Virus record (IMG/VR): IMGVR_UViG_3300019890_000002
Coordinates: 1-31,772 of that record
Reading direction: 5' to 3' (one strand)
Source: a virus
Length of the DNA stretch: 31,772 nt
Numbering within the stretch: position 1 is the stretch's first letter; the number at the start of each line of letters is the position of its first letter. Made by a program: the position numbers and the translations under genes. This document shows, one piece after another, positions 1 to 31,772 of this stretch. The notes under the pieces were generated by a model. It worked only from the letters and a program-made list of their open reading frames with translations, did not search any database and had not been told where the DNA came from.

Positions 1-100
1 ACTGAAGCAGTGCATGATTCACAGTACCGGGCTACGTCACGCAGCGTGACGGCAAAAGTTGATCATGAAACCCAGGAATTTTCAGGAGGGGGAAATTCAC
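1..100. repeat. Terminal direct repeat, left copy (assembly overlap or terminal redundancy)
   Basis: actgaagcagtgcatgattcacag...ggaaattcac is base-for-base identical to 31673-31772. Confidence 0.97.
35..51. promoter_or_regulatory. 17-bp palindrome CGTCACGC-A-GCGTGACG upstream of the RHH cassette (second copy at 31707-31723 because of the terminal repeat)
   Basis: Read directly from the sequence. Lies 30-50 nt upstream of the first gene of the cassette once the circle is closed. Confidence 0.35.
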
Positions 101-147
101 CCCGGCTGGCTCTGGCCGGGAGGTGCGGTCGCTGGACATTACAGGCC

Positions 148-227
148 CCTGACCTGCAGGTACTCCGGATTAGATCGTTAGCGCCGCTAACGATCGACCG
201 TCCACCATCCTGACCTGCAGGAACTCC
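148..227. promoter_or_regulatory. Composite element: 19-nt direct repeats CCTGACCTGCAGG(T/A)ACTCC (148-166, 209-227) flanking a perfect 23-bp palindrome GATCGTTAGCG-C-CGCTAACGATC (173-195)
   Basis: Read directly from the sequence. Lies in the largest non-coding region. Confidence 0.6.
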
Positions 228-285
228 ACCACCCCGGCCCTCGTCCCGGCTGCGGCCACCACCCCAAGATGTCACGGATGGTGAC

Positions 286-400
286 ATTCTAAATCCTGCC
301 TAAATTAACCTACCTAAATAAAGACATCCCTAAATAAGTAACAACATATCTATATCAATTAGCATATCTATAATTGATTGCCAATTGTATTGACATCTCT
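286..400. repeat. AT-rich island with 4x CTAAAT (289, 300, 314, 330), 2x CATATCTATA (345, 363) and short AATTG/CAATTG palindromes
   Basis: Read directly from the sequence. Sharp GC drop relative to the flanks. Confidence 0.7.
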
Positions 401-401
401 A

Positions 402-659
402 TTACCACGATGTCTTCGGTTGGTGAACTGGATCCTTGCCAACCGGGTCACCGATCTTCAGGTTGCAGTGCATACACGATGCGACCAGATACTTCGGGTC
501 GTCACCTGCTGCCTTGCCGTACAGGTGGTGCACACACGTGGCCATGGTGGTGCATCCATCCAGTCTGAGCTGGCACCGGTGCCGGTCACGGTCGAGCACG
601 GCCTGGCGTGTCTTACGCCATGCCCGGGTTGACCCGTTCTTCCATCCTTCGCTAGGCAT
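402..659 (-). CDS. Small HNH endonuclease (85 aa)
   Basis: Motifs DRDRHRCQL..C....VHHL........ASCMHCN (Cys4 plus the H-N-H core). Last gene of the early operon, with an 8-nt overlap on the upstream gene. Confidence 0.85.
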   Translation of the reverse strand: MPSEGWKNGSTRAWRKTRQAVLDRDRHRCQLRLDGCTTMATCVHHLYGKAAGDDPKYLVASCMHCNLKIGDPVGKDPVHQPKTSW

Positions 660-828
660 CCGCTGTCTGTTCCCGCAGCCACCGGGCCAACGCGCTGTGC
701 TCTGCCGTGAGCCGGGTCACCGGATCGACGGCCACGCGCTGGTACTTCTCCGGTATGGCGTTCCGCATGGCGTCCCGGATGTAGCACACACAGCCGAACA
801 CCCGGGTGTCAGCGCAGTCGCAGGCCAT
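652..828 (-). CDS. Hypothetical protein (58 aa, MACDCADTRVFGCVCYIRD...)
   Basis: The protein-like part of the 122-aa track ORF starts at ATG 828, which forms an ATGA start/stop overlap with the upstream gene. GC3-rich. Confidence 0.6.
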   Translation of the reverse strand: MACDCADTRVFGCVCYIRDAMRNAIPEKYQRVAVDPVTRLTAEHSALARWLREQTADA

Positions 829-1046
829 CAGAAGCACCCCACGATGCGCAGCAGTGACAGGACTTTGAAGTACCGGCCATCGCCGCTGTCCAGGTCCATC
901 TTGCCGAGGATGATCTTGGCGCGGAGCACGGCTAGTTCCTCGGCGAGCACGGGCCTGCAGGTCTTGCAGATCCATGCGTAGTCGTCTTCGGTCCGCGGTT
1001 CCGGGTTGCAGACCATGCACTTGAGGTCGTTCTCATCGGCGGTCAT
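828..1046 (-). CDS. Small zinc-ribbon protein (72 aa)
   Basis: CMVC...16 aa...CKTC pair. ATG at 1046 is preceded by AGGAGGG 6 nt upstream. ATGA overlaps at both ends. Confidence 0.65.
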   Translation of the reverse strand: MTADENDLKCMVCNPEPRTEDDYAWICKTCRPVLAEELAVLRAKIILGKMDLDSGDGRYFKVLSLLRIVGCF

Positions 1047-1423
1047 GACGCCGCCCTCCTGGCTACAACGAGGCGCCGCATGTTCTCTTTGTGGGTGCAC
1101 GGTTCAAGGTGAGCCGGGCGCCAGCAGGCCGGATTGCTGCAGCCCTTATCCCTGACGTGATCGACTTCCTCACCCGGGTTCAGCGGGCCATTGAACACCT
1201 CGTGGGCGGCGCGGTGCACGTACGCCTTGCCGGTGCGCTTGCCGTTCACCATCGGCTTGTGAATCTGGCGGTAGCCGGCCTGGGTTACCGATCCGGACTC
1301 GTAGATGTAGCAGCCGGACTCGTAGTCGAAGGTGGTGTGCCGCATGAGCGCCACGATGAACGCTCCGGGCGAGTCCCACATCGAGGTGCGCGGGCCGTAG
1401 CCGGTGCGTGAATAGGGCATCAT
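1043..1423 (-). CDS. HNH endonuclease, second copy (126 aa)
   Basis: KAYVHRAAHEVFNGP...EVDHVRDKGCSNPACWRPAHLEPCTHKEN is an HNH_3-like core. Start is ATGATG at 1423 with AGGAG upstream. The upstream part of the 180-aa track ORF looks non-coding. Confidence 0.8.
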   Translation of the reverse strand: MMPYSRTGYGPRTSMWDSPGAFIVALMRHTTFDYESGCYIYESGSVTQAGYRQIHKPMVNGKRTGKAYVHRAAHEVFNGPLNPGEEVDHVRDKGCSNPACWRPAHLEPCTHKENMRRLVVARRAAS

Positions 1424-1512
1424 CAGATCGCTCCTGCCTGGTTGAGGTAGAGGAAGACGAAGACCACCAGCAGGGTGGCCAGCAGCACCCAGATCACAGC
1501 CGTGATGTTCAT
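1423..1512 (-). CDS. Candidate 29-aa single-pass membrane micro-protein (MNITAVIWVLLATLLVVFVFLYLNQAGAI)
   Basis: Not in the ORF track (too short). It exactly fills the gap between two genes, with an ATGA overlap at 1509-1512 and a TGATG overlap at 1421-1425. Strongly hydrophobic core. Confidence 0.45.
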   Translation of the reverse strand: MNITAVIWVLLATLLVVFVFLYLNQAGAI

Positions 1513-1742
1513 GCCACGCCTTCCCAGACGTTGTAGCCGTCCGCATCCTGATCGGCCAGGCGCTGGATCTGGACCGCGCGCTCATACGACCGGCTGTAGG
1601 CGTCGCACGCGTCGGCGGCTTGCTTCAGGCCGATCAGGCTGTCCTGCAGCGCGAGGGCCAGCCGGGCTTCGCGCCGCAGCGACTCAACTTCGTCCCAGGC
1701 ATCCAGTGCTGCGGTGATCAGCGGAGGAACCAGGCGCGTCAT
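1509..1742 (-). CDS. Hypothetical protein (77 aa)
   Basis: GC3-rich ORF translationally coupled (ATGA) at both ends. Confidence 0.65.
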   Translation of the reverse strand: MTRLVPPLITAALDAWDEVESLRREARLALALQDSLIGLKQAADACDAYSRSYERAVQIQRLADQDADGYNVWEGVA

Positions 1743-1984
1743 GACGCTGCCTCCAGATTCCGCGCGGCCACCTCGGTGAAGATTTTCTTGATCTCCTTCG
1801 CCTGATCCTTGTCGTCGTGGTGGGCGATCATTTTCACGGCGCCTTCGGCAGTCGGGTGATACTTCGGCTTCAGCCGCAGGCCGGCCAGCCTGATCCGGTG
1901 GCAGTAGGCCATGTACTCGCGGATCGCCGGTTCCCAGTTCCCTGGCTTGGCCGGCATCTTCTGGTACACGGTGGACGGACTCAT
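1739..1984 (-). CDS. Hypothetical protein (81 aa)
   Basis: GC3-rich ORF with ATGA overlaps at both ends. Confidence 0.65.
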   Translation of the reverse strand: MSPSTVYQKMPAKPGNWEPAIREYMAYCHRIRLAGLRLKPKYHPTAEGAVKMIAHHDDKDQAKEIKKIFTEVAARNLEAAS

Positions 1985-2142
1985 GCCTCGCTCCTGATCT
2001 TGATGAGGCAGTCGTACTTGCGGAGGTCGGCGTGAACCCAGATCGCGCCGACGAGGGCGATGAGCTGATGTACGCGGATGGGTGATCCGCAGTAGCCGCA
2101 GCAGGTTTCCGAGCGGGCCTTGCGAACCCGGGTTTTAGTCAC
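1981..2142 (-). CDS. Candidate 53-aa Cys-rich protein (VTKTRVRKARSETCCGYCGSPIRVH...)
   Basis: Not in the ORF track. GTG at 2142 overlaps the stop of the rep gene (GTGA) and its own stop overlaps the next ATG (ATGA), so it fills the gap exactly. Confidence 0.45.
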   Translation of the reverse strand: MTKTRVRKARSETCCGYCGSPIRVHQLIALVGAIWVHADLRKYDCLIKIRSEA

Positions 2143-3323
2143 GGCCGGGGCCTCGTTTTGGTCTCGCCAGGGGTCTCAGTCTCACGACCTACCGTCCCTA
2201 TAGGTCGTGAGACTGAGACCACGCCTGGCCCGTGATCATGAGACTGAGTGAGACTCGGTGAGACTTCATGAGACTGAAGCATCTGCTGGCCGAGAGCTAC
2301 CAGGCAGTAACGAGGACTGTTGACGGTCCCGATGTTGCAGATCTTTCCGGCTTCTACCAGGTGTTTCTTGGCCCGATAGAAGGTCGCCTTGGTCAGTCCG
2401 GAGACCTCCATGAGACGGGTTACCGAGGCACCTTCGCCAGTCTCAAGGCAGTCTCGCATCGCCGTCAGGAGAGTCGTTTCAGAGTCGTTGAAAGTGCCCA
2501 TTTGGCCGAAATCGGGTGAGACTCGGTGAGACTCCACAATTACGGCGCTCTGACCTGCAGGAACGAGACGGAAGTAGCACTGAGGCTGCTCAGGGGCATC
2601 CTTTTGCTTAGTGTTGGACAAAGTCACCTGGTCGCCGTCTTTCTCGGCCCGGATGAGAGTGGACGCGGCGCCCTCGATGGCCGTCGAACCCCGGGGATTG
2701 TCCGCGTTCCGGGGCTCGTGGTGGACGAGCATCACGCACGCTCCGGTGACCGCGCGGATCGAGTCGGCCGCGTCCACCAAGAGACTCATGTCCTTGCTGG
2801 AGTTCTCGTCCAGTCCGCTGGCAGCCCGCGCCTGAGTGTCAATCACCACGAGCTTGGCGCCCATGTCCACCGCGATCTGGCCGAGCGGTGCGGCGTCCGG
2901 GATGATCCTGATCCCGGCGGGCAGGAACGTGACCTTCATGTCCATTCCCATGGACGACTCCCATGCCCTCACCCGCTGCTTCAGGCCCGGGACGCCTTCG
3001 AGGTACACGTACAGCACCGCGGACTCTGCGACGAGACGGCCGTGCCACGGGATACCGCACGCTACGCACCCGGCCATATCGAGTGCTACGAACGACTTCC
3101 CGCTGGCCCGCTTGCCGTGCAGCCAGACCAGGCCGTCCTGGTACAGCCAGTCGTTGATCAGCGGGAGCGGCTCCGGTAGTGAGTCGAGCGCCGCACTGGT
3201 GAGCAGGGCAGCCCGCAGCTGGTCGAGCCGGCTGAGATGCGGCGACACGATGGCCGGAGCGGAGTACTGATCACCTTCCTGGACGAGGGCCTCGAAGGCT
3301 TCGTCGTCGTCGTCCCGGCTCAT
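2139..3323 (-). CDS. Replication protein: RepA/AAA_25-type (RecA-fold) ATPase with C-terminal winged-HTH
   Basis: Walker A HGKRASGKS, Walker B KLVVIDT, then LVHHEPRN...RGSTAIEGAAS. C-terminal HTH-like VTRLMEVSGLTKATFYRAKKHLVEAG. The iteron array lies inside its 3' part. Confidence 0.8.
   Translation of the reverse strand: MSRDDDDEAFEALVQEGDQYSAPAIVSPHLSRLDQLRAALLTSAALDSLPEPLPLINDWLYQDGLVWLHGKRASGKSFVALDMAGCVACGIPWHGRLVAESAVLYVYLEGVPGLKQRVRAWESSMGMDMKVTFLPAGIRIIPDAAPLGQIAVDMGAKLVVIDTQARAASGLDENSSKDMSLLVDAADSIRAVTGACVMLVHHEPRNADNPRGSTAIEGAASTLIRAEKDGDQVTLSNTKQKDAPEQPQCYFRLVPAGQSAVIVESHRVSPDFGQMGTFNDSETTLLTAMRDCLETGEGASVTRLMEVSGLTKATFYRAKKHLVEAGKICNIGTVNSPRYCLVALGQQMLQSHEVSPSLTQSHDHGPGVVSVSRPIGTVGRETETPGETKTRPRP
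2172..2220. repeat. Perfect 20-bp inverted repeat GGTCTCAGTCTCACGACCTA-N9-TAGGTCGTGAGACTGAGACC
   Basis: Read directly from the sequence. Lies inside the 3' end of the rep ORF. Confidence 0.9.
2239..2275 (+). repeat. Four TGAGACT iterons at exact 10-bp spacing (2239, 2249, 2259, 2269); further copies at 2208, 2517 and 2527 (+) and at 2178 and 2439 (-)
   Basis: caTGAGACTgagTGAGACTcggTGAGACTtcaTGAGACTgaa. The 18-mer GTGAGACTCGGTGAGACT is repeated exactly at 2248-2265 and 2516-2533. Confidence 0.85.
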
Positions 3324-3640
3324 GCGGCATCACCCGGGTCACCGAGAACGAGGTCACCGACCACCGCGCTCTCCATCGGGCTCCGGCCGCGACGCTTGGC
3401 CCTGGCGTCCCTGGCGAAGTCCATGTCGTTCCTGATCTGGCACATGGCCTTGGCCATCCGGACGTCGGGCGGCTGCTGCAGCTGGCGCTGGCGGGCGGTC
3501 CAGGTGCGCCACCACGCGATCTGCTGGTGCTTCTCTTCGATCTCCGCTATGGCGACTGCCGCTTCGGCGCGACCGTCTCGCAGGCCGGCCTGGTAGGCGC
3601 ATTCGAGGCAGTGATGCAGGGCCAGCTCCTGGGCGCTCAT
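3320..3640 (-). CDS. Hypothetical protein (106 aa)
   Basis: Coupled ORF (ATGA at 3320-3323 and 3637-3640). Confidence 0.65.
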   Translation of the reverse strand: MSAQELALHHCLECAYQAGLRDGRAEAAVAIAEIEEKHQQIAWWRTWTARQRQLQQPPDVRMAKAMCQIRNDMDFARDARAKRRGRSPMESAVVGDLVLGDPGDAA

Positions 3641-4008
3641 ATCTCACGGCCCCGGCTGAAGTCGCGGTTCCAGCAGATATCGCCGTAGGAGCCGCCACCG
3701 GAGATGCGTGCAATACCGGCCCGTTCAAAGATCCGCCGCTCGGCGTAGTAGAGGGTGTACTTGCCCCCCCGCTTCGTGTCGGACAGCCGGAACCAGATCC
3801 GTTTCGGTGTCCACTTCACGACCGGGACTTCCCGGATAACCCCCGTGTAGCGGTATCCGCTCTTCCAAGCCCAGGCGGCTTCCCGGTAGTAAACGACGCT
3901 GCCGTTCAGCGCGATCCACAGCGGGATGTCGGGGTTCTTCTTGCCCCAGACCATGTCGGCCTGGCGTTCCTTGTCCTCCCCGAACCAGCTCCCGCTCCAG
4001 GCCGTCAT
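3637..4008 (-). CDS. Hypothetical protein (123 aa, Trp/Tyr-rich)
   Basis: Coupled ORF. No motif recognised. Confidence 0.65.
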   Translation of the reverse strand: MTAWSGSWFGEDKERQADMVWGKKNPDIPLWIALNGSVVYYREAAWAWKSGYRYTGVIREVPVVKWTPKRIWFRLSDTKRGGKYTLYYAERRIFERAGIARISGGGSYGDICWNRDFSRGREI

Positions 4009-4367
4009 GGCGTCGCCTCCCCGACCGGGTCCGTCTGCGAGATGTCGAACAGGCAGATGACCCGCATCCTGGTGATGACGGTGCCGTCCGGGTTCTTCTC
4101 AGTGGCGCGATCCGGGTCGGTCCTGGTGTGGGGCGCCACCATCCGGATGGCCTTCTCGCCCGAGCGGACTTTCCGGCCAGCCTGCAGCCATCCGTTATAG
4201 GCGTGCAGTGACGTGGCGGTGGCCCGCTGGAGCCAGAGCAGCTTCAGGTTCCGCTCGGAATACCGGCCCGTCCAGCGGATAAGGAACGCGGCCACGTCAG
4301 GCTGGGCCGAGTCAACGGCATCCGCCTGCTCGATCAGCGACTGGGCCGTGATCTTCTGGCCGGTCAT
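4005..4367 (-). CDS. ArdC-N-terminal-like (DUF1738-type) ssDNA-binding protein
   Basis: YSERNLKLLWLQRATATSLHAYNGWLQAGRKVRSGEKAIRMV resembles the ArdC N-domain signature (YS..N..LL..Q....T...W...G..V.KGEK). Confidence 0.5.
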   Translation of the reverse strand: MTGQKITAQSLIEQADAVDSAQPDVAAFLIRWTGRYSERNLKLLWLQRATATSLHAYNGWLQAGRKVRSGEKAIRMVAPHTRTDPDRATEKNPDGTVITRMRVICLFDISQTDPVGEATP

Positions 4368-4579
4368 GCCGCATCACGGACCGGGCGCAGCAGCAGGCCG
4401 AGGCGCTCATATGCTTCGTCGGTCAGCGATGGCGCGTTCTGGACAGCTCGCTTGATGGCTGCGGCGACTGTCGCCTCGGCCAGTTCGAGCCTGGCCCGCT
4501 CAACCAGTTCGATGTTCTCCGGGTGCCGGCGTACGGCCTGCCCTAGGCGTCCGCGCGCCTGGGCGGTACTGAGTGCCAC
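4364..4579 (-). CDS. Hypothetical protein (71 aa), first gene of the early operon
   Basis: GTG start at 4579 and ATGA overlap with the next gene. Preceded by a 219-bp lower-GC non-coding region. Confidence 0.6.
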   Translation of the reverse strand: MALSTAQARGRLGQAVRRHPENIELVERARLELAEATVAAAIKRAVQNAPSLTDEAYERLGLLLRPVRDAA

Positions 4580-4798
4580 TGGGTTCCCATCAGGGATACG
4601 GGCGCACTCTGCGATGCAGGTGATGGGTGCTTAAGTGCCCGTCTCGTTCATGGCTACTGCCAACGGGGGTTCCGCGAGCCCGTCAGGCCCGGTGTAACTA
4701 TTAGCAAGGCTAAGGGTTCTGTGCAGCCAAAGTCAAGCTAAAAGACCAGCTCAGAGGCAGTATCTCGAACGTACCTTCAGAGGCACACTGGGTATCTC

Positions 4799-6268
4799 TC
4801 AGGCGTTCTCGGGCCACGGGATGACGCGCTCAGTCACGGGCGCTCCGCGGCCTGGCTGCAGGGTCGCGGCCGGCATGATCACCCGCAGCGCGGCCTTCCG
4901 CGCGGCCAGCGTCAGTGAGTTCCAGCGCGCGGCCACGACAGCCTGGGTCTCATCCGGCAGCCCGGACAGCGCACCCGGGAGTGCCGCATCCTTTGCCTTC
5001 GCCTCGGCAGCCTCGGCCTTCGGCTTCAGCGTGGCCGTGACCACTTCCAGCTGCGCCATGTCGATCCGCCCTGCGGCGAAGGATGCCGCCGCCTCGGCCA
5101 TCTGGGTCCGGTAGCCGGCCGCCTCGGTGCTCCAGCGGGCCGCTGCGCTGTCGTCTGCTGAGGTGACCAGCTCCGCCGCGCGGGTGGTGATGAACTCCAC
5201 CGCCAGGCCGTCCAGGTAGGCGTCCGCTTCGGCGCACGGGACCGAGTTGCCGCTGTTGGCCCACCGGCTGCCGCCGTGGTTGGCCGGGCAGTAGTAGTCG
5301 GTCCGGCCGCTGGGCAGCAGGCGTCCCCGGATGATGTCGCCGCAGCTGCCGCAGCGCATGGCGCCTGAGTAGCGGTAGGTCATCCGGGCGGGCCGCTCAC
5401 CTTTGCGTGCCGGGTCGGCCAGCCGGGCGCGGGCCTTCATGCTCTCGCCCTCGGTCACGACACCGAACTGCGCATAGACCGGGTTGCCCGCGATCCTCTG
5501 CACGCTGGCCGGCCACCACTGGCCGCCCTTCGGCGCGGTGATGCCATCAGCGTTCAGCGCTGCGGCGATCGCAGACCAGCCGTCTCCGTCCCCTGCGGCC
5601 AGGATGATGCGGCGGACGGTTGGCGCGTGATCGGGGTGCGGCTCGTCGGCCATCCAGTTCCGCTTGGGCTTGGACGGGTCCCAGCTGCGGACCAGACCCC
5701 ATGCGACGCTGCCCTGTGGCCGGCCAGCCACGCGGCCATCCTCTTTGCCGCTCTTGACGCGCACGCTGATCATCTCCGACTCCATCGCGCTGGCGATGCC
5801 GGCCTCGGCCAGCGCCTTCCAGTCGCGCGCCTTGGTGACGTCGTAGGTGTAGTCCTCGTTGGTGACGTAGATCAGGACCCCGAACCGGCGGCAGGTGTCC
5901 AGTAGCGTGGCCCAGCCGGCCAGCTGGCGGTCACCACGGGAAGACTCCCAGAGCACCAGCACGTCGATCTGCCCATCGGCTATATCGGCCCGCAGCCGCT
6001 GCCAGTCCGCGCGACTGGCGCCGCCTTTGCTGCCGGCGAAGCGCGATGCGCTCAGGCTGTCCGCGTACTCGGTGAGTGCCCAGCCGTGCCGACTGGCAGC
6101 CTCGCGATTGGCCGTGTTCTGGCGCTCGATGCTCTGGTCTCCAGAGGAAACCCGCTGGTAAGCGGCGGCTCTGGCCTGGTCTGTGCTGGTGATCGTGGTC
6201 ATGTCCCCGATCGTATCCCTAACCACACACAGTTCTGACTGCATGTTGTTAGGGATACGTGGTCTCAC
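4799..6268 (-). CDS. int: Large serine recombinase (integrase)
   Basis: N-terminal resolvase motif AAYQRVSSGDQSIERQ, recombinase domain, zinc ribbon CGSCGD...YYCPANHGG, and an Ala-rich coiled-coil C-terminus. Start is ambiguous: GTG 6268 (GGAGG about 11 nt upstream), ATG 6244 or ATG 6202. Confidence 0.9.
   Translation of the reverse strand: MRPRIPNNMQSELCVVRDTIGDMTTITSTDQARAAAYQRVSSGDQSIERQNTANREAASRHGWALTEYADSLSASRFAGSKGGASRADWQRLRADIADGQIDVLVLWESSRGDRQLAGWATLLDTCRRFGVLIYVTNEDYTYDVTKARDWKALAEAGIASAMESEMISVRVKSGKEDGRVAGRPQGSVAWGLVRSWDPSKPKRNWMADEPHPDHAPTVRRIILAAGDGDGWSAIAAALNADGITAPKGGQWWPASVQRIAGNPVYAQFGVVTEGESMKARARLADPARKGERPARMTYRYSGAMRCGSCGDIIRGRLLPSGRTDYYCPANHGGSRWANSGNSVPCAEADAYLDGLAVEFITTRAAELVTSADDSAAARWSTEAAGYRTQMAEAAASFAAGRIDMAQLEVVTATLKPKAEAAEAKAKDAALPGALSGLPDETQAVVAARWNSLTLAARKAALRVIMPAATLQPGRGAPVTERVIPWPENA
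6213..6259. promoter_or_regulatory. 47-bp element with perfect 11-bp inverted arms (GTATCCCTAAC-N25-GTTAGGGATAC): candidate attP core or int operator
   Basis: Read directly from the sequence. It lies at or just upstream of the 5' end of the serine integrase gene. Confidence 0.35.
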
Positions 6269-6302
6269 CTGGGCAGATACCTCCGAATGTGATTTGTATC
6301 AC

Positions 6303-6596
6303 TCAGACAACTAAACCGTTTGCAGCAAACGCTTTAGCCCTGGCGATCTCCGTCTTCTCCTGTTCAGTGAGCCGCTTCCCGGTTTGCCCAGCCTGGCCAG
6401 GCACACGTGAGGTAGCCGGCGGAGCCTCGTCATCTTTATACCCGGGTATATTGATGTCCTTACTTACGGTCTTCTGGCTCACCCCCAGCATCCCGGCGAT
6501 CTTCACCTGGGACCAGTTCTGCTCGTGGTAGAGGTACTTGTGGCGATCTACGATCAGCGGCGAAGGTACTACGCACAGTACAAACCCATGACTCAA
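6303..6596 (-). CDS. Small helix-turn-helix protein (97 aa)
   Basis: HTH segment WSQVKIAGMLGVSQKTVSKDI. Visibly lower GC3 than its neighbours. TTG start at 6596 is uncertain. Confidence 0.6.
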   Translation of the reverse strand: MSHGFVLCVVPSPLIVDRHKYLYHEQNWSQVKIAGMLGVSQKTVSKDINIPGYKDDEAPPATSRVPGQAGQTGKRLTEQEKTEIARAKAFAANGLVV

Positions 6597-6694
6597 GCAA
6601 TAGGTTTAGCTCTGCCGATCTTCAGGACAAGGCGAAGCATCTCTACGAGATCAGCCGGGCGCCTGAGGTGACGTGGCCGCTGCTGATCGAGCAG

Positions 6695-6961
6695 CTACGG
6701 GCGCTGGTCCTGCGGTAGCACGTAGGCGCCTTTGCCGGGCACGATGCGCGCCAGGCCTTCCTGTACGAGCACCTGGACGGCCTTCGCTGCGGTGCCGCGT
6801 GCGACCTGGTACTGGCCCATCAGCTGGACGAGGCTCGGCACTGGCCGGCCTGGCTGGAGAGTGCCGTCGAGAATCTGCGACCGCAGCAGGTCGCTTAGCT
6901 GCAGGTACAGCGGTCGCTCACCCAGTGGATCAAGACTCACATGATCACCGTACGTGACCAT
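6695..6961 (-). CDS. GntR-family winged-HTH regulator, DNA-binding domain only (88 aa); repressor candidate
   Basis: ERPLYLQLSDLLRSQILDGTLQPGRPVPSLVQLMGQYQVARGTAAKAVQVLVQEGLARIVPGKGAYV matches the canonical GntR N-domain pattern. No effector domain follows. Confidence 0.8.
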   Translation of the reverse strand: MVTYGDHVSLDPLGERPLYLQLSDLLRSQILDGTLQPGRPVPSLVQLMGQYQVARGTAAKAVQVLVQEGLARIVPGKGAYVLPQDQRP

Positions 6962-7063
6962 GATCGTGTAGCTCTACCGGGGCAGTCCGTGTGTGCCATA
7001 GCCGTCCATGTATCACCCGGTCTACACTCGCTATCGACACAGCCGGCCACAGCGAGGGTCACC

Positions 7064-10800: not shown

Positions 10801-12385
10801 CTGGCAGCCCGGAATCACTGGCCAGCGACGGTGCGCCCGAGAACGTCATCGGGAAGCCGGTCGTCAGGCCCGAGCTGAGGCTGGTGGCCGCACTGCCATC
10901 CTCAGCGGGCCAGTAAGCCAGCGGCGGGGCAGCCAGCGTCTGGTAGTACCGGAACAGCGCGGACCGCAGGGCAGCGTTCTGGTTGAGCCGCCGCAGGATG
11001 CCGTTCGCAGTGATCTGGACAGTGATGTCCTGGCCGGTGTTATCCCAGGTGGGCGGCCACTCGGCGACCTCACCCCAGAACCGGTATGACAGCGGCGACG
11101 GGATAACCGCGGTGGGCGCGGACACTCGCAGCTGCGTGTTCCGGCCGATGAGCAGATAGTAGGGAGAAGCCGGGTTGCGTGGTGAGAACCGGCCGTCACG
11201 GTTGTTCAGCGTGAACGTGCACGTCGCCGGGTTGACTGTCGCGGATTCGTCAGGCCGTCCGCGCACGATCGTGATCGTCTGCCGCTGGTAGACGAAGTCA
11301 GTGATGTCAGTCCACGTGTCACCGACGAGTAGCTCGAACAGCAGAATCAGTGGCTGCGCCGGGAACGGGAATCCCTGGAAGATCCGGCCGGCCAGCACCG
11401 GTGTGCGGACGCCTGCTGAGCCGCTGATGACGAGCGACTGGGTACCGGTGCCCGACAGTGCCGCCTTGGGGAGCACCAGGTGACCGCCGGTCAGGGCCAG
11501 CCCGGTCCCGGATATCCCCATCTTCGGGAGCGCTGCCGACCCGGTGCTCGTATTGGGGGGAATCCAGCTGATCGCCAGCGACGAGCTGGATGCCACGCTG
11601 ATCGTGTAGGCGGTCCCCGCGACGACACTCTCGGTGCTGGTACTGGTGTGCCCGTCGAAGGATGCGGTCCCGCTGATCGTCCATGAGGCCGAGGTGATCC
11701 CGCTGGGCGCGGTCCACTGGTACGTGCCGCCGGTGGTGCTCGCTGAGATCGTGGCCGTGCTCGCCATCGTCCAGGTGATGACGACCTGACCGGCTTTGCC
11801 GGCGGCAGCGTTCGAGCCGGAGACGCCGCCAGCACCACCACCCGGGGCCGAGCCTGCGGTCTGGGCGTTGCCGCCAGCGGCGCCGCCGGTGACTGCGACA
11901 GCACCAGCCCCGCCGCTGGCTCCGGTGCTGCCCGCATTGCCAGCCGCAGCGGTCCCGCCCGAGCCACCGCCACCACCGCCGGTAGTGCCGTTCCCGTTGC
12001 CGCCAGCCCCCCCGTTGTGGTGCGTGGTGTTGGTGCTGCCAGTCCCGCCAGCGCCACCAGTCTGGGAGCCTGTCCCGTTTGCCGTGCCGCCGTGGGCGGT
12101 GACGGCCGGCGAACCGCCGGTGACAGTGGAGCTTGCACTGGTTCCGGTGGTCCCGGCAATTGAGGCGGCACCAACGACGACGGTGTAAGAGTTCCCGGCC
12201 GTGACCGCCAGGGCCGGCTCAGCGGCGTACTCACCACCACCGCCGCCGCCCAGGCCGGAACCTGCAGCTACCGAGGGAGCTCCGGAACCCCAGCACTCGA
12301 CTTGCGCAGCCGTCACCCCGGCCGGGCAGACCCAGGTGAACGTGCCGGCGGTGGTGAACTTCGCGGTGAACGTCGCGTTGGCCAT
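7856..12385 (-). CDS. Giant tail protein (1509 aa): Dit-like (siphovirus tail family) core with three glycine-rich modules
   Basis: Follows the tape measure with a 1-nt overlap. Core motifs are GDTWTDITDFVYQRQTITIVRGRPDE...FTLNNRDGRFSPRNP (N part) and LQDCEDADRGLIFETRDALGMAYRTRSSLY...FDIIVTGERMTVTG...FTVSRGVNGV (C part). Gly-rich modules begin TFTWVCPAGVT..VECWGSG, THTWIAPPDIT..VQAWGAGGGG and TFNAPADIDG..AYVWGAGGGG. Confidence 0.8.
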   Translation of the reverse strand: MANATFTAKFTTAGTFTWVCPAGVTAAQVECWGSGAPSVAAGSGLGGGGGGEYAAEPALAVTAGNSYTVVVGAASIAGTTGTSASSTVTGGSPAVTAHGGTANGTGSQTGGAGGTGSTNTTHHNGGAGGNGNGTTGGGGGGSGGTAAAGNAGSTGASGGAGAVAVTGGAAGGNAQTAGSAPGGGAGGVSGSNAAAGKAGQVVITWTMASTATISASTTGGTYQWTAPSGITSASWTISGTASFDGHTSTSTESVVAGTAYTISVASSSSLAISWIPPNTSTGSAALPKMGISGTGLALTGGHLVLPKAALSGTGTQSLVISGSAGVRTPVLAGRIFQGFPFPAQPLILLFELLVGDTWTDITDFVYQRQTITIVRGRPDESATVNPATCTFTLNNRDGRFSPRNPASPYYLLIGRNTQLRVSAPTAVIPSPLSYRFWGEVAEWPPTWDNTGQDITVQITANGILRRLNQNAALRSALFRYYQTLAAPPLAYWPAEDGSAATSLSSGLTTGFPMTFSGAPSLASDSGLPASSPFPSFNGATFTGATGIAGALPVAQTTVLSTTGTHTWIAPPDITSVLVQAWGAGGGGSGYNGNTGGAGGGGSEYASGSLAVTPGNSYSYTVGASSAGVSGGSSVMHGDSSTSITAHGGTAGSSDGATGGAGGTGSTAATHFDGGAGAAGSGGPGGGGSSNTTQQNLAYTSDATFNAPADIDGTVTAYVWGAGGGGGGGGSSSGGGGGGGGGFSQGSHSVSGGSNYPVKVGQGGAGGASGGEGTVGGQSYFNSSGTIQADGGQPGHAAGTTGSGGSGNTHSGGHGGSGTTGNKGGGGGGGASIDGGGGNGTDSAGGGAGGNGGSGNGTINGGGHGGDGGSSAQGARNGADGAPTGAGGGGAYTRQFGATPSGGGGGRGKVWLFWSETVTMDPPDAGIGGGGGSSGGSASAGNDGDVELGGAAVTGGGPGGGTLAGSSFMAAPSSTPGGGGGGYDSLGNAAAGAQGLITLSYAPAGSGSSTTAANVLRFVLHTPDGGDTDGGVVAQMETTGTIAYIQVIYNVANAGSLTLSGFSGAGAQLFTTGEVAFGCDNQYLLVSAELTPSGSNIAYTLTGIFAGQTVAAATSSGTLTAATLGDAFVVIMDPNGDMASATWAHAAIQESGYDPVTSLAGPLAAYAGETASQRFTRICTEQNIPFSVIDAGVTDTTALVGPQLPVKVPQILQDCEDADRGLIFETRDALGMAYRTRSSLYAQAAAMQLDYGAGELGFPLQPTDDDQLLRNDVTISRPSGSSAEFQVTSGTLSIQDPPAGVGPYTFSQSINVDSDEQLEDLASWITFIGTVDQLRYPVVYVDLARAEIGTDFADVVNADIGDYLQVVNTGDAPLPPGDIRQLVYGYTEELNAYTWTLSMNCVPESPYEIAQAGDCRADTDGSQLHSGIGNGDISFAVDTPVPNQPWVDSTGYSGEFPFDIIVTGERMTVTGIDGASSPQTFTVSRGVNGVQKPHNAGESVNLYQPAITAL

Positions 12386-14829
12386 CAGTTCCGCCCGAAT
12401 GCCTGCTGGACGTTGCCCCCGCCCTGGACCCGGGCGAACTTCCGGATGGTGGTCAGCATGAACTGCTCGAAGGCGCTCTGGCCGGAGGAGTCGAAGCTGA
12501 CCGTGACGTTCGTGCCGGCGCCGGTGCTCATCATCCGCTCGGTGTCAGGATTGGAGTGCACGGTCGAGCCGCCGGGCAGCCGGATCAGCTCTCGGCCATG
12601 CTCACCAACCATGGCCAGTCCGGTGCCGGTGCCGCCCGCGGCGTAACCACCGGGCTGCAGCATCACCGACGCGAGAGAACGTCCCCGGTAGCCGGGAGAG
12701 TTGACCGCGTAGTTCAGCCCGGCGAAGATGTTCGCCATCGGGTTGTAGATGCTGTTCGGCAGTGAATCTGAGCGGTACGCCTCGAACGTCGTCATGATCG
12801 TCTGCATAAGCCCGCGGGACGGGTCGCCGTGCTGGGCGTTGATGTCGGTGAGGTTGATCGCGTTCGGGTTACCGCCGCTCTCCTGCATCATGCGGTGCTC
12901 GACCGCACCCAGGTTGGAGCTGGACTGGCCCAGCATGGCCAGCGCCTTGAGGATGTCGGGAGCCCACTGGGTGACCCCAGCACCGAAGCTGCCCGTGTAC
13001 TTGCTGCCACTGCCACTGGCCGCCTTGCTGGCAGCCAGTTTCACCTGCGCCGCCTTGTTCGCATCGTGCGCCTTGTTCGCGGAGCGCTTGATGCCCTTCT
13101 CCAGGCCGAGCATCAGGTTGTCACCGATCTCCGCGAACACCGAGGACGGCGACAGGACACCCCAGATCTTCTTGACCACGTTGACGATCGTCTTGCCGAA
13201 GTTGGAGAACCAGCTCTCAATGTCGCCGCCGACCCGCTTGAACGCGTTCCACATCTCGTTCAGCGCGGCGGACGCGAAGCTGCCCAGCGAGTGGCCGAGG
13301 CCGGTGAGGGCGCCGACCAGCTTGGACGGCATCCCCTTGAAGAAAGAGACGATGTTGCCCCAGACACTCTTCACGGTCGAGAACATCTGGTTCCAGGCGC
13401 TGCTCAGGAACGACTTCACCGAGTTAGCAGCCGAGGTGATCGCGGACTTGATGTTGTTCCACACGGACTTGATGAAGCTCAGGATGGAGTTCCAGGCGCT
13501 CTTCACTGCGTTAGTGATGGCGTTCCAGGCGCTGGACAGGGTGCTCTTCACCGAGTTGACGTCTGAGCTGACCGTCGACTTGATGTTGTTCCAGACGCTC
13601 TTGAAGAACGAGAGGACGGCATTCCAGGTGCTCTTCACCGTGTTGCTGATGGCGTTCCAGGCGGAGGAGAGCGTGTTCTTCATCGAGCTGACGTCCGAGC
13701 TGACGTCGGACTTAATGCTGTTCCAGATGGACTTGAAGAAGCCGAGTATGTCGTTCCAGATCTTCTTGATGGAGCTGTAGATGTCGTTGTGGTACTTCAT
13801 GATCACGCCGGACGGCCCGAGCAGGAGCGGCCACCACTGCTTGGCGAAGCTGAGGATGTTGTCCCAGGTCGTCTTGATGAAGTTGTAGACGTCACCCCAG
13901 ATCTTCTTGACCGTGTCCCAGATCTGGTTGTGGTACTTGATGATCAGGAGGGCCAGCACGACCAGGGCGGCAGCGACCGCGACGAACGGGTTGGCCAGCA
14001 TGGTGGCAAACGTCTCCGCCATGCCGAGCTTGAAGACCAGCAGTGCTCCAGTGGCGAGCCCCAGTGCGAGGGGCAGCAGGTGGAACTTCGAGAGCATGTC
14101 CACGATCACCAGGGAGACCTTCGCGCCGATCACGAGGATCGGGGTCAGCGCGGCGACCATCTGGACGAACGCGGGGGCCAGTTGCGCGAGGAGCTTGATC
14201 CCGGTCGGCCCCACGTCCATGAAGATCTGCATCAGGACCTTCAGGAGGCCCACCAGGGCCGGCCCGAGGATCTGGGATGCCTGGACTGCGAGCTTGGCCA
14301 TCATGTCCGCGAACTGCTTGAAGAACGGGCTGGCGACCAGTCCCAGCAGCGGCGCCAGGAACGCGGAGATGGAACTCGCGCCTGCCTTGGCGAGGATCTG
14401 GAGGGACGGCATCAGGCTCTGGAGGATGACCCCGCCGAACTTGACCAGGTACAGGATGGCCGGCTCGATGGCCTTGCTGGCCTGCTCGAAGCTGGTCTTA
14501 ATCCCCTCGATGGCCTTCGCGATACCCGTCTGGGTCGGGTCGAGCTGCGCCCATGCCTTCTTGCCGGCCGCGCCCGTGGAGGTGACCGCCTTCTCCACCT
14601 TGCTGAAGGTGGGCGCTGCCAGCGCACCGAAGGCGCCGACGGCAAGGGTGAGGCCGCCCAGCGGGGCGGCCATGGCGGTGAGGGAAGACCCGAGCGCGAT
14701 AATCCCGGCGCCCTGGCCGATGCCGGCCATCGACTTCTTCAGGTCTTCGCTGTTGGCCTTCGCCTCAGCGAAAGCTTGCTTTGTGTTGTCCTTCGCCTTG
14801 ACCAGGATTTCCACGACATTACTGGCCAT
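12385..14829 (-). CDS. Tape measure protein with C-terminal lytic transglycosylase (SLT) domain
   Basis: 814 aa. Long hydrophobic/helical centre and Trp/Phe-periodic 44-aa tandem repeats. SLT signature MMQESGGNPNAINLTD...GLMQTIMTTFEAYR...YNPMANIFAGLNY. Lies downstream of the G/GT chaperones. Confidence 0.9.
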   Translation of the reverse strand: MASNVVEILVKAKDNTKQAFAEAKANSEDLKKSMAGIGQGAGIIALGSSLTAMAAPLGGLTLAVGAFGALAAPTFSKVEKAVTSTGAAGKKAWAQLDPTQTGIAKAIEGIKTSFEQASKAIEPAILYLVKFGGVILQSLMPSLQILAKAGASSISAFLAPLLGLVASPFFKQFADMMAKLAVQASQILGPALVGLLKVLMQIFMDVGPTGIKLLAQLAPAFVQMVAALTPILVIGAKVSLVIVDMLSKFHLLPLALGLATGALLVFKLGMAETFATMLANPFVAVAAALVVLALLIIKYHNQIWDTVKKIWGDVYNFIKTTWDNILSFAKQWWPLLLGPSGVIMKYHNDIYSSIKKIWNDILGFFKSIWNSIKSDVSSDVSSMKNTLSSAWNAISNTVKSTWNAVLSFFKSVWNNIKSTVSSDVNSVKSTLSSAWNAITNAVKSAWNSILSFIKSVWNNIKSAITSAANSVKSFLSSAWNQMFSTVKSVWGNIVSFFKGMPSKLVGALTGLGHSLGSFASAALNEMWNAFKRVGGDIESWFSNFGKTIVNVVKKIWGVLSPSSVFAEIGDNLMLGLEKGIKRSANKAHDANKAAQVKLAASKAASGSGSKYTGSFGAGVTQWAPDILKALAMLGQSSSNLGAVEHRMMQESGGNPNAINLTDINAQHGDPSRGLMQTIMTTFEAYRSDSLPNSIYNPMANIFAGLNYAVNSPGYRGRSLASVMLQPGGYAAGGTGTGLAMVGEHGRELIRLPGGSTVHSNPDTERMMSTGAGTNVTVSFDSSGQSAFEQFMLTTIRKFARVQGGGNVQQAFGRN
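13333..13779 (-). repeat. In-frame tandem repeats (about 132 nt / 44 aa, roughly 3.5 copies) within the tape measure
   Basis: LSSAWNAI(S/T)N.VKS.WN..LSF.KSVWNNIKS...S..NSVKS. is repeated. Confidence 0.8.
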
Positions 14830-31441: not shown

Positions 31442-31674
31442 GCCCCGGCCTCCTTCGCCAGCCCGACGAGCGCCTCGCTGATCTTCGCCAGCTCGGCCAG
31501 CGAGGCCTTGGCCTTCGTCAGCTCGGCATTGAGCTGGTCCGCCTCCGCCAGCTTGGCGGTTAGCTGGTCTGCATACGAGACCTCCACCACGGAATGGCCC
31601 TTCTGTGTGCGCCGGCCGGTGAACCTGGTCCATGTGTGCCATGTCTTTCTTGTCATGCTCCCACTGTACACCAC
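31438..31674 (-). CDS. Coiled-coil protein (72-78 aa), first gene of the cassette
   Basis: ADQLTAKLAEADQLNAELTKAKASLAELAKISEAL. GTGA overlap with the RHH gene. Start is GTG 31674 or ATG 31656. Confidence 0.55.
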   Translation of the reverse strand: MVYSGSMTRKTWHTWTRFTGRRTQKGHSVVEVSYADQLTAKLAEADQLNAELTKAKASLAELAKISEALVGLAKEAGA

Positions 31675-31772
31675 TGAAGCAGTGCATGATTCACAGTACC
31701 GGGCTACGTCACGCAGCGTGACGGCAAAAGTTGATCATGAAACCCAGGAATTTTCAGGAGGGGGAAATTCAC
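31673..31772. repeat. Terminal direct repeat, right copy
   Basis: Identical to 1-100. Confidence 0.97.

Follow-up and report, generated by a model that had tools for sequence, protein, structure and literature searches.

The origin of phage lambda is within the O gene. Its iterons occupy the flexible interdomain part of the coding sequence and are transcribed through. The P4 alpha protein is a multifunctional replication protein whose C-terminal domain binds short repeated sites at the origin, and the oriV of plasmid RSF1010 also has iterons. The lambda origin position is cited as well in PMC7157519; the mycobacteriophage RepA/parABS origins of that paper involve another RepA family and are irrelevant here.

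The SaPI Rep protein is helicase and initiator in one, and a C-terminal winged helix binds iterons of 5–6 nt (PMC9371898). There are 6–12 of these iterons directly downstream of rep, arranged in two groups with opposed copies. They flank a clear AT-rich centre, and the system has no known separate loader. SaPI Reps belong to an MCM-related group of AAA+-type helicases (PMC9371898). The minimal replicon of the Streptomyces plasmid pWTY27 (GU226194) consists of repB, which encodes a primase-polymerase, repA (positions 2189–621, complementary strand) and a 300-bp iteron region directly 3' of repA, with the iterons at positions 338–606. The repeats are 7–8 bp, TTCCCAC/GTGGGAAC, and are present in both orientations together with inverted repeats; in vitro, RepA gives a footprint on the long inverted repeat (PMC3583192).

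The window, i.e., the whole stretch of 31,772 nt that was analyzed, is a small temperate actinobacterial phage of 31.7 kb. It carries a serine integrase. Neither a primase nor a polymerase gene was found in the phage, no primase gene adjoins rep, and parA, tubZ or a like partition gene is absent from the ORFs scanned. The rep gene is a 394 aa ORF at positions 2139–3323 on the minus strand, and it holds a set of repeats at positions 2172–2533. Sequence matches and structural modeling predict Rep to be a RecA-fold, RepA-like helicase of the AAA_25 family with a C-terminal winged helix. The RecA-fold core spans approximately aa 30–265 and is followed by a disordered linker (aa 266–279), the winged helix (aa 280–341), a helix (aa 342–352) and a disordered tail (aa 354–394).

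Pfam AAA_25 matches Rep at aa 40–206 with an E value of 1.3e-31. A match to HTH_36 at aa 279–326 is weak and under the Pfam cut-off, and no other Pfam family was found in Rep. PHROG matches are to helicase and primase families. In a PDB profile search Rep matches RSF1010 RepA (1g8y, E = 2.9e-8), and this homology suggests a helicase activity. The AF2 model has a pLDDT of 80.9, with values below 50 at aa 268–274 in the linker and from aa 354 in the tail. The C-terminal domain is modeled as a winged helix, a fold prediction of high confidence. Foldseek aligns the model to RepA 1nlf_A with a TMt of 0.65, and RecA/Rad51 recombinases score about equally.

The heptamer TGAGACT occurs ten times as an exact copy on the two strands of the whole window, compared with 2.99 ± 1.76 in shuffled sequences; none of 100 shuffles reached ten. 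Nine of the ten copies are within positions 2178–2533 (356 bp), and the tenth is at position 25029. The nine start at 2178(-), 2208(+), 2239, 2249, 2259 and 2269(+), 2439(-), and 2517 and 2527(+). The main iteron array (positions 2239–2275, plus strand) consists of four direct copies at an exact 10-bp phase. An upstream set, also on the plus strand, has two direct copies 10 bp apart (positions 2517–2533). The 18-mer GTGAGACTCGGTGAGACT is duplicated identically at positions 2248–2265 and 2516–2533. Copies with one mismatch are nearby at 2172(-), 2214(+), 2411(+) and 2450(-). Between the two sets, within the segment that encodes the winged helix, are scattered copies (positions 2411–2456): an exact inverted copy at 2439–2445(-) and the one-mismatch copies at 2450–2456(-) and 2411–2417(+).

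The sequence at positions 2172–2220 is a perfect inverted repeat with arms of 20 nt (2172–2191 and 2201–2220) that are 100% complementary, and a 9-nt spacer. Each arm is TGAGACTGAGACC, i.e., two overlapping iterons. As a single strand the segment folds into a hairpin (z = -5.4). It was also considered as an intrinsic terminator, which is ruled out as there is no T-run. The number of such perfect inverted repeats expected by chance in the window is about 6e-6, from hand arithmetic as 0.272^20 × 31,772 positions × approximately 38 spacer lengths. An earlier sequence-only reading had described nine copies in about 360 bp with four at 10-bp phase, the 18-mer duplicate and the inverted repeat, which it held to be beyond chance in 32 kb. 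The copies were re-counted and shuffle-tested, the duplicate and the inverted repeat are where it had placed them, and the expectation of about 6e-6 bears out its judgment. Clustering, phasing and the perfect inverted repeat far exceed chance.

That reading also placed the repeats in the part of rep encoding the winged helix and a low-complexity tail. The location holds and can be given more exactly: the repeats lie on codons of the disordered linker (aa 264–269) and of the disordered tail (aa 350–384), and these flank the winged-helix body. The upstream set covers the linker codons aa 264–269 (ESHRVS). The main array covers aa 350–362 (QSHEVSPSLTQSH), and the inverted repeat encodes aa 368–384 of the tail. 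The DNA between the two iteron sets (positions 2301–2486, minus strand) encodes the winged-helix body, aa 280–341, and has a GC content of 49–63% compared with approximately 65% for the genome. The 10-bp phasing puts TGAGACT in three codon frames, which argues for a constraint on DNA and not on protein. The GC3 of rep is 0.4–0.55 at the main array versus 0.85–0.95 in the helicase part, and this collapse covers both the linker and the tail parts of the gene. Some homologues likewise have SH-rich tails. The tail motif SHHPFRGG of homologues, when back-translated by hand from the peptide alone, gives a near-perfect palindrome; we argue that here too the constraint acts on DNA rather than protein.

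A comparison was made with 157 related loci in two independent sets (79 viral and 78 from genomes), each of 4–9 kb and with a Rep 30–50% identical to that of the window. The statistic was the most significant clustered 7-mer per locus, and the target zone was -400 to +250 nt from the rep stop. The top 7-mer is in the zone at 124 of the 157 loci, where approximately 14 are expected; the viral loci contribute 63 of 79 (approximately 6.7 expected) and the genome loci 61 of 78 (approximately 7.8 expected). These expectations assume uniform placement and ignore the general repeat-richness of intergenic DNA, and the loci are phylogenetically non-independent. Loss of the repeats in relatives that keep the protein had been named as evidence against an origin; instead, arrays are found at the 3' end of rep or just past it in these 124 loci. 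Among 57 non-duplicate loci there are 35 distinct top 7-mers, many with a TC[CT]CA core. Thus the position is constant and the sequence is lineage-specific. In two pairs of related loci the iteron columns are identical at 56/56 (100%) and 65/70 (93%) positions, whereas the non-iteron columns of these pairs are 42% and 61% identical.

The family iterons are in both orientations, and the spacings of adjacent direct copies peak at 10 bp and are mostly 8–12 bp. A closely spaced inverted iteron pair is present in 57 of 64 loci. Iteron inverted repeats equivalent to positions 2172–2220 are seen in five relatives (L001, L002, L009, L012 and L014). The longest perfect inverted repeat per locus is near the rep stop in only 25 of 80 loci; this ranking is a poor statistic and was replaced by adjacent inverted iteron pairs. 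The longest inverted repeats of the other loci, GC-rich hairpins that are elsewhere, we take to be mostly terminator-like. With positions counted from the end of the winged-helix codons, the 388 family iterons fall into 71 at -220 to -141, two at -140 to -21 and approximately 300 at -20 to +260. The family layout is therefore bipartite, with two iteron sets around the segment that encodes the winged helix. The upstream set of the window, positions 2517–2533, matches the family upstream peak. In the direction of rep, the upstream set is followed approximately 80 nt later by an inverted copy, in the window as well as in L001 and L012.

The main array is just past the rep stop in 42 of 57 relatives, and the in-gene location is thus a variable detail. 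The zone encoding the winged helix is lower in GC than the helicase part in 51 of 60 loci. A GC dip of 4–6 points is found at the array in 50–53 of 60 loci. The genes that flank rep vary among the loci inspected, and rep is the neighbor that all of them share. In some relatives the AAA_25 domain is fused to a PrimPol, and two relatives (L016 and L018) have the iteron motif TTCCCAC. Actinomycetota carry this arrangement of array and rep in prophages and other elements, and some Acidobacteriota, Chloroflexota and Betaproteobacteria have it too.

A clean code linking the recognition helix of the winged helix to the iteron sequence was looked for among the relatives and none emerged. The sole hint of a code comes from three distant proteins that go with AGTCTCA iterons and have R-[AT]-[KR]-K in common. 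When the first 7 kb were searched for near-identical sequence among 50,697 phage records, nothing matched, so the phage is without close relatives for a fine-scale comparison; the best protein relatives are approximately 50% identical. A search of plasmid proteins with Rep matched only distant proteobacterial RepA helicases, and no actinobacterial plasmid was among the matches.

From these observations we infer that the TGAGACT copies and the inverted repeat probably represent the vegetative origin of the phage, with the iterons bound by the helicase-initiator that the same gene encodes. A RecA-fold helicase of the hexameric type joined to a winged helix implies that initiator and helicase would be one polypeptide. 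The C-terminal winged helix of Rep is the predicted iteron binder. Rep subunits would bind the phased direct and the inverted copies of both sets (positions 2517–2533 and 2172–2275), and the two bound sets would bracket approximately 240 bp of less stable DNA. Binding would open the duplex; transcription through the region and extrusion of the 20-bp inverted repeat may assist. The helicase ring would assemble on the opened duplex, and replication would be completed by host primase and polymerase, which are proposed because no gene for either was found in the phage. An origin may be tolerated within the gene in that it overlaps only codons of the disordered linker and tail.

A more tentative proposal concerns the family as a whole. 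The widespread RecA-fold AAA_25 helicases may possibly self-initiate by means of the fused winged helix, from a bipartite origin that straddles the DNA encoding this domain and slides in or out of the reading frame from lineage to lineage, and pseudo-conserved tails such as SHHPFRGG might be translated palindromes. The literature that could be searched contains no account of iterons at the 3' end of AAA_25-winged-helix genes, nor of a self-initiating class.

Of the 40-bp stretches of the genome, the main array, positions 2239–2275, is in the 15 least stable, and the repeat region is 1–2.5 SD less stable than the genome mean; the least stable DNA is at positions 334–374. There is no discrete AT-rich unwinding element beside the repeats, only a modest GC dip, to 49–61% compared with approximately 65% genome-wide. 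A GC-skew inflection had been suggested as a check. The cumulative GC skew has no inflection at 2.2–2.5 kb and has its minimum near 6–6.5 kb, which gives no support either way; skew may miss a replication signal in a genome of 31.7 kb with nearly all genes on one strand. DnaA boxes (TTGTCCACA-like, with at most one mismatch) are absent from positions 1–7000. Such boxes are common to many iteron origins, though not to all. A promoter and terminator scan showed nothing in positions 1900–2700.

The missing unwinding element and the lack of a skew inflection are consistent with an alternative in which the repeats are Rep sites for regulation and initiation is elsewhere. Titration or handcuffing would then control copy number or timing, or a roadblock at the end of rep would set how strongly downstream genes are expressed. 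Iterons of plasmids function in initiation as well as in control, and the linkage and co-variation of arrays with rep point to a cognate pair whose role they leave unspecified. However, no second rep-tied repeat array was seen in the window, an operator at the 3' terminus of a gene would be unusual, the equivalent array of SaPIs is the origin (PMC9371898), and the repeat region 3' of repA in pWTY27 belongs to the minimal replicon (PMC3583192). We regard a purely regulatory role as unlikely.

Short phased repeats in two orientations are also typical of partition centromeres, and TubR and the pNOB8 centromere-binding protein are among the weak structural matches of the C-terminal model. The array could then be bound by a protein other than Rep, as a ParR/TubR-like centromere or as a packaging site. 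This is very improbable. Among the scanned ORFs there is no partition gene, and the phage has a serine integrase; the flanking genes differ between the inspected loci while rep is always present. The AT-rich repeat region at positions 1–400 is by inference a better packaging candidate. In pWTY27, RepA itself binds repeats of this kind (PMC3583192).

The 49-bp inverted repeat at positions 2172–2220 might instead be the attP site of the serine integrase, with integration splitting rep. The attP sites of serine integrases are approximately 40–50 bp and partly palindromic with normally imperfect half-sites, so the size fits, but the arms at positions 2172–2220 are perfect. These arms are moreover copies of the motif found in the adjacent direct arrays, and several relatives carry an equivalent iteron inverted repeat alongside rep. 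The segment is 2.6 kb from int. A better candidate is the imperfect inverted repeat at positions 6212–6259 (22 nt, 86% complementary, 4-nt spacer), which overlaps the 5' end of int. An attP at positions 2172–2220 thus has hardly any likelihood. That the repeats are a by-product of the Ser/His/Thr-rich tail, of which SH-rich versions occur in some homologues, or are due to chance is effectively refuted: the motif is in all three frames with copies on both strands, the main array is outside the ORF in 42 of 57 relatives, the GC3 drop fits a DNA constraint, and chance is excluded by the shuffles.

Several features adjoin the candidate origin. Tandem 23-bp units at positions 2132–2177 (Tandem Repeats Finder, period 23, 2.0 copies, 78% matches) lie next to the inverted repeat, downstream of it in the direction of rep. 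Each unit ends in AAAAC on the rep coding strand, and the pair runs across the rep stop and the beginning of the next gene; the units possibly represent an auxiliary element. In 97 of 116 loci the coding strand is A-rich past the last iteron, which is significant. This tract may be just the ribosome-binding region of the next gene, and because of this confounding it is left out of the evidence. The next downstream ORF (positions 1981–2142, minus strand) encodes a Cys-rich protein of 53 aa, and its GTG start overlaps the rep stop (GTGA). The overlap implies that translation of rep crosses the whole candidate origin into a coupled gene. In L001 and L012 the origin-spanning ORFs likewise end in a stop/start overlap (ATGA), and the 53-aa gene itself is not conserved at these two loci. 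Next to the AT-rich repeat region at positions 1–400, the leftward operon ends with a small Cys/His-rich ORF.

Few replication origins have been mapped in actinobacterial phages and integrative elements. If the origin reading is correct, the origins of this phage and of well over 100 relatives could be read from the sequence as an array of a lineage-specific 7-mer where an AAA_25-winged-helix gene has its 3' end. Rep with approximately 450 bp would be a candidate minimal replicon for vectors in Streptomyces, Micromonospora, Mycobacterium and related genera, and the family would provide a natural panel of cognate helicase/iteron pairs for RecA-fold self-loading on double-stranded DNA. There is also a caution for annotation, in that the C-terminal tails and their apparent motifs probably reflect constraint on DNA and not on protein.

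By analogy, the best reading is that the candidate origin works like SaPI Rep/ori, P4 alpha and the repA-iteron region of pWTY27, with lambda O/ori as the precedent for position. As in lambda, the iterons are inside the initiator gene, on codons of a flexible region, and would be transcribed through. The sequence-only reading had likened the locus to lambda O/ori, and this holds for position in the gene but not for the protein. The analogy is positional only, because Rep is predicted to combine a RecA-fold helicase and a DNA-binding domain. Lambda O, which is no helicase, brings in host DnaB by way of P, whereas the window Rep is itself a helicase-like ATPase. The lambda iterons are 19-bp palindromic sequences by an AT-rich tract; those of the window are 7 bp, in two sets with an inverted repeat. 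RSF1010 (IncQ) has a RepA homologous to the ATPase core (1g8y/1nlf). In that plasmid, however, iteron binding falls to RepC, a separate protein, and RepA lacks a DNA-binding winged helix, while in the window the predicted binding domain is fused to the helicase. P4 alpha differs in that it is a primase with a superfamily-3 helicase, and ori and crr are separate and not in the 3' end of the gene.

The likeness to pWTY27 includes an actinobacterial source and 7-bp repeats in two orientations with an inverted repeat at the 3' end of rep. The pWTY27 motif TTCCCAC/GTGGGAAC is identical to that of L016 and L018 and similar in its core to TC[CT]CA, and a primase-polymerase gene precedes repA, as in the relatives with a PrimPol-AAA_25 fusion. 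The pWTY27 RepA, a protein of 522 aa called hypothetical, is likened to the window Rep by description and not by sequence. A scan of the viral and genome contigs with pWTY27 primer sequences gave no match, and a search from the L018 Rep (TTCCCAC type) gave Micromonospora proteins and no named pWTY27 RepA. Unlike the window, pWTY27 is a conjugative plasmid with a primase-polymerase, and its iterons are wholly intergenic. With SaPI the window shares a predicted helicase ATPase with a C-terminal winged helix and opposed iterons at or after the 3' end of rep. The differences are that the predicted fold of the window Rep is RecA-like and not AAA+ (MCM-related/SF3-like), and that the window sets flank a mildly GC-depleted segment encoding the winged helix, with the array partly or wholly in the ORF. 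SaPI Rep/ori and the repA-iteron region of pWTY27 are closer analogues than lambda, and the origin reading is an extension of a known theme, that of lambda O/ori and SaPI Rep/ori, and not a new theme.

The heptamer TGAGACT is present in ten exact copies in the 31,772-nt window, compared with 3.0 ± 1.8 in shuffled sequences, and none of 100 shuffles reached ten. Nine of the ten copies are between positions 2178 and 2533, and four of them follow one another in exact 10-bp steps (2239–2275). Copies with one mismatch are at 2172, 2214, 2411 and 2450. The 18-mer GTGAGACTCGGTGAGACT is found at both 2248 and 2516. A perfect inverted repeat has 20-nt arms (positions 2172–2191 and 2201–2220) and a 9-nt spacer. 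Each arm reads TGAGACTGAGACC, so the inverted repeat is itself built from the TGAGACT motif. By our own arithmetic, chance would yield about 6e-6 perfect inverted repeats with 20-nt arms and a short spacer, and as single-stranded DNA the segment 2172–2220 folds strongly (z = -5.4). A recount thus bears out the sequence-only reading in its nine copies, 10-bp phasing, 18-mer duplicate and inverted repeat. The 15 least stable 40-mers of the window include the 10-bp array, and no discrete AT-rich block is present at the array. There is no DnaA box near the repeats and no promoter-like or terminator-like site in the repeat region. GC skew, a check proposed in the same reading, is uninformative as to an origin.

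The repeats are located in ORF 2139–3323 (minus strand), which encodes the 394-aa protein Rep. Pfam shows an AAA_25 domain at aa 40–206 (E=1.3e-31) and a weak HTH_36 match below cut-off at aa 279–326, and the family profile matches the RSF1010 RepA helicase (1g8y, E=2.9e-8). The AlphaFold model (pLDDT 80.9) displays a RecA-fold core (aa ~30–265), a disordered linker (pLDDT <50 at aa 268–274), a winged helix of three helices and two strands (aa 280–341) and a disordered tail (aa 354–394). Foldseek with this model finds RecA/Rad51 proteins and RSF1010 RepA; among the hits listed, RepA 1nlf_A has the highest target-normalised TM-score (0.65). The C-terminal domain modelled by itself matches generic DNA-binding winged helices. 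The upstream pair of repeats (2517–2533) corresponds to aa 264–269 in the disordered linker, the 10-bp array to aa 350–362 at the start of the tail, and the inverted repeat to aa 368–384 within the disordered tail. GC3 along rep is 0.85–0.95 in the helicase part, 0.5–0.7 in the linker and winged helix and 0.4–0.55 in the tail. At the 3' end, the rep stop codon and the GTG start of the following ORF overlap (GTGA, 2139–2142).

Relatives 30–50% identical to Rep were analyzed at 80 viral loci and 80 loci of species-representative genomes. For each locus (~4–9 kb), the most significant clustered 7-mer on both strands was determined in a 400-bp window, without prior assumption as to location. The sequence-only reading had named loss of the repeats in relatives that keep the protein as grounds for refutation, and the relatives do not show such loss. 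Viral loci whose top cluster is between -400 and +250 nt relative to the rep stop number 63 of 79, and genome loci 61 of 78; uniform placement predicts ~6.7 and ~7.8, although the loci are not independent samples and this null ignores the greater repeat content of intergenic DNA. Lineage motifs differ (AGTCTCA, which is TGAGACT on the other strand, GTCCCAC, ACTCCCA, CTTCCCA, TTCCCAC, GCTCTCA, ACTGCCA, ATTGTCA and others). Among 57 non-duplicate loci, 35 distinct top 7-mers are found, with a TC[CT]CA core common to many. The C-rich motifs of some distant groups (CTCCCCC) perhaps represent coding bias in part, yet these are on both strands as well.

The copies in relatives are in both orientations. 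Spacing of adjacent same-orientation copies peaks at 10 bp (33 cases; main range 8–12 bp), and 57/64 loci have an inverted pair at close spacing. Detailed maps of L001, L012, L002 and L014 reveal the same order as in the window, i.e., a few linker copies, the winged-helix coding segment, three to four close direct copies and a short-spacer inverted repeat of iterons. In L009 the inverted repeat has 15-nt arms, a 9-nt spacer and an ...ACCTA/TAG... centre, a geometry nearly equal to that in the window. Iteron columns are 56/56 identical between L016 and L018 compared with 42% around them, and 65/70 identical between L003 and L020 compared with 61%. A comparison of winged helix and iteron sequences resolved no recognition code. 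The family is also found outside Actinomycetota. The betaproteobacterial loci (L157–L159, from Azospira, Azonexus and Thauera) have nine copies of ATTGTCA at +14 to +215, L135 (Vicinamibacterales) has ten of AGTCTCA, the 7-mer of the window, with a protein only 35% identical, and L145 (Verrucomicrobiaceae) has a stop-proximal array. L133 (Dehalococcoidia) has no array at the rep 3' end, and its top cluster is >1 kb upstream. The relatives show a conserved, lineage-specific, cis-acting repeat array tied to a gene whose product combines a RepA-like ATPase and a winged helix. A by-product of protein coding, or chance, is excluded, as the motif falls in three reading frames and on two strands, and relatives have arrays outside the gene.

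When the 57 non-duplicate loci are anchored at the winged-helix end (query residue 341), 71 of 388 iteron copies are at -220 to -141, only 2 at -140 to -21 and ~300 at -20 to +260. The copies in the window (-232, -222, -144, then +26 to +117) fit this pattern. These positions indicate that the putative origin straddles the DNA encoding the presumptive iteron-binding domain. The upstream set is present in 31/57 loci, inside the ORF every time. The downstream set is entirely past the stop codon in 42/57 and partly within the ORF in 14/57, including the window; location of the main array inside the gene is therefore a variable trait. GC is 61.5% in the array, 67.5% in the helicase part and 65.9% further downstream, with this modest dip in 50–53 of 60 loci. 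The C-terminal tails of homologues P0002, P0005, P0012, P0017 and P0034 (alignment A1) have a common motif, SHHPFRGG. Its back-translation by hand, from the peptide and not the homologues' DNA (TCC CAC CAC CCC TTT AGG GGT GGG), holds a near-perfect palindrome, CCCACCACCCC-TTTA-GGGGTGGTGGG. This suggests a pseudo-conserved peptide that arises as a by-product when an inverted repeat of the origin is translated in frame, and an origin overlapping the rep 3' end would perhaps explain this oddity of the protein alignment.

The first and last 100 nt of the window (1–100 and 31673–31772) are identical, which implies a complete genome of 31,672 bp that is circular, or circularly assembled and terminally redundant. 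Its genes encode a capsid protein, portal, ClpP-like protease, long glycine-rich protein, SLT-domain protein and serine recombinase, and it is read as a small temperate tailed phage. Genome GC is ~65%, and the closest protein relatives are from Actinomadura, Trebonia, Streptomyces and Nocardiopsis. A 132-bp tandem repeat (13431–13788; 2.5 copies, 78% matches), in which a 33-bp repeat is nested, is within ORF 12385–14829 (minus strand). The 814-aa product of this ORF has an SLT transglycosylase domain and is probably a tail or tape-measure-like protein of repetitive sequence. Domain and profile searches detected no primase or polymerase genes among the ORFs scanned. Three genes upstream of rep, the 120-aa product of 4005–4367 (minus strand) contains an ArdC N-terminal-like domain (Pfam E=3.5e-6) and is classed under anti-restriction by PHROG. 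As domains of this type bind single-stranded DNA, the protein is a possible accessory factor and could act in replication or anti-restriction.

The feature is best described as a putative iteron-type origin that is coupled to a RecA-fold helicase-initiator and lies in part within the 3' end of the initiator's gene. The origin interpretation of the sequence-only reading is thus supported at the level of sequence comparison. The Rep winged helix would bind the repeats, and binding at the two sets and the inverted repeat would distort or open the less stable DNA between. The same protein may then assemble as the replicative helicase, with host primase and polymerase completing the replisome. As transcription and translation both pass through the array, opening could be helped by transcription, as in lambda. 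A purely regulatory role for Rep binding at the repeats is unlikely.

The main alternative origin site is at 290–400, the least stable and most AT-rich DNA of the genome (334–374), which could also be a packaging (cos/pac) or regulatory region. Just short of this region, the leftward operon ends in a small ORF (402–659) that is rich in Cys and His and has no Pfam match. The region contains three 14-nt direct repeats with the 3' end CCTAAAT(A/T)A (294–337) and two exact copies of CATATCTATA (345 and 363). The sequence CTGACCTGCAGG(A/T)AC is present three times: two copies, 61 bp apart, are by the genome end (148–166 and 209–227), and the third is in rep (2549–2563), ~15 nt from the upstream iteron pair. 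Between the first two copies is a perfect 11-nt palindrome pair, GATCGTTAGCG/CGCTAACGATC (173–195). With up to one mismatch, TGACCTGCAGG has 11 occurrences compared with 1.06 expected.

That the rep repeats are bound by a different protein, as a centromere or packaging site, is highly improbable, as all loci share rep as a neighbour and no partition gene was detected among the ORFs scanned. That the inverted repeat at 2172–2220 is attP is very unlikely: it is made of iterons, it recurs alongside rep in relatives, and a better candidate is at the 5' end of int. This is an imperfect inverted repeat of 48 bp (6212–6259; 22-nt arms, 86% complementary, 4-nt spacer), which overlaps the 5' end of the serine integrase gene (4799–6268, minus strand) and is a plausible attP. 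The low-GC intergenic region next to it has a second palindrome, CATCTTTATACCC/GGGTATATTGATG (6431–6456), a possible operator.

The general kind of system to which the putative iteron origin belongs is already known. Of the AAA_25 and winged-helix family of presumed initiators, and of the bipartite layout straddling the winged-helix coding segment, no description was found in the literature searched. The 'iterons' of pLMA1 from Micrococcus luteus are five 29-bp repeats with a regular 32-bp separation (PMC2974207); CRISPR arrays, and not origin iterons, have this geometry, and the case is unrelated to the window. RSF1010 has the same helicase fold as Rep, but its initiator, RepC, is separate. 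The lambda O/ori arrangement proposed in the sequence-only reading holds for an origin within the initiator gene on a flexible segment, but not for the protein family or the logic of helicase recruitment. By published layout alone, the closest actinobacterial precedent is pWTY27, where repB (primase-polymerase) and repA are followed by a 300-bp iteron region directly 3' of repA, with TTCCCAC/GTGGGAAC repeats plus inverted repeats; a RepA footprint was obtained on the long inverted repeat, and replication from the locus is bidirectional (PMC3583192). TTCCCAC is also the motif of L016 and L018, and some relatives of Rep have fused PrimPol, Toprim or DnaB-N domains, cf. the pWTY27 primase-polymerase. 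The closest working analogue is SaPI Rep, a self-loading helicase whose C-terminal winged helix binds 6–12 short iterons, in two opposed groups, directly downstream of rep (PMC9371898). It differs from Rep of the window in its ATPase fold, and the SaPI array has a clear AT-rich centre.
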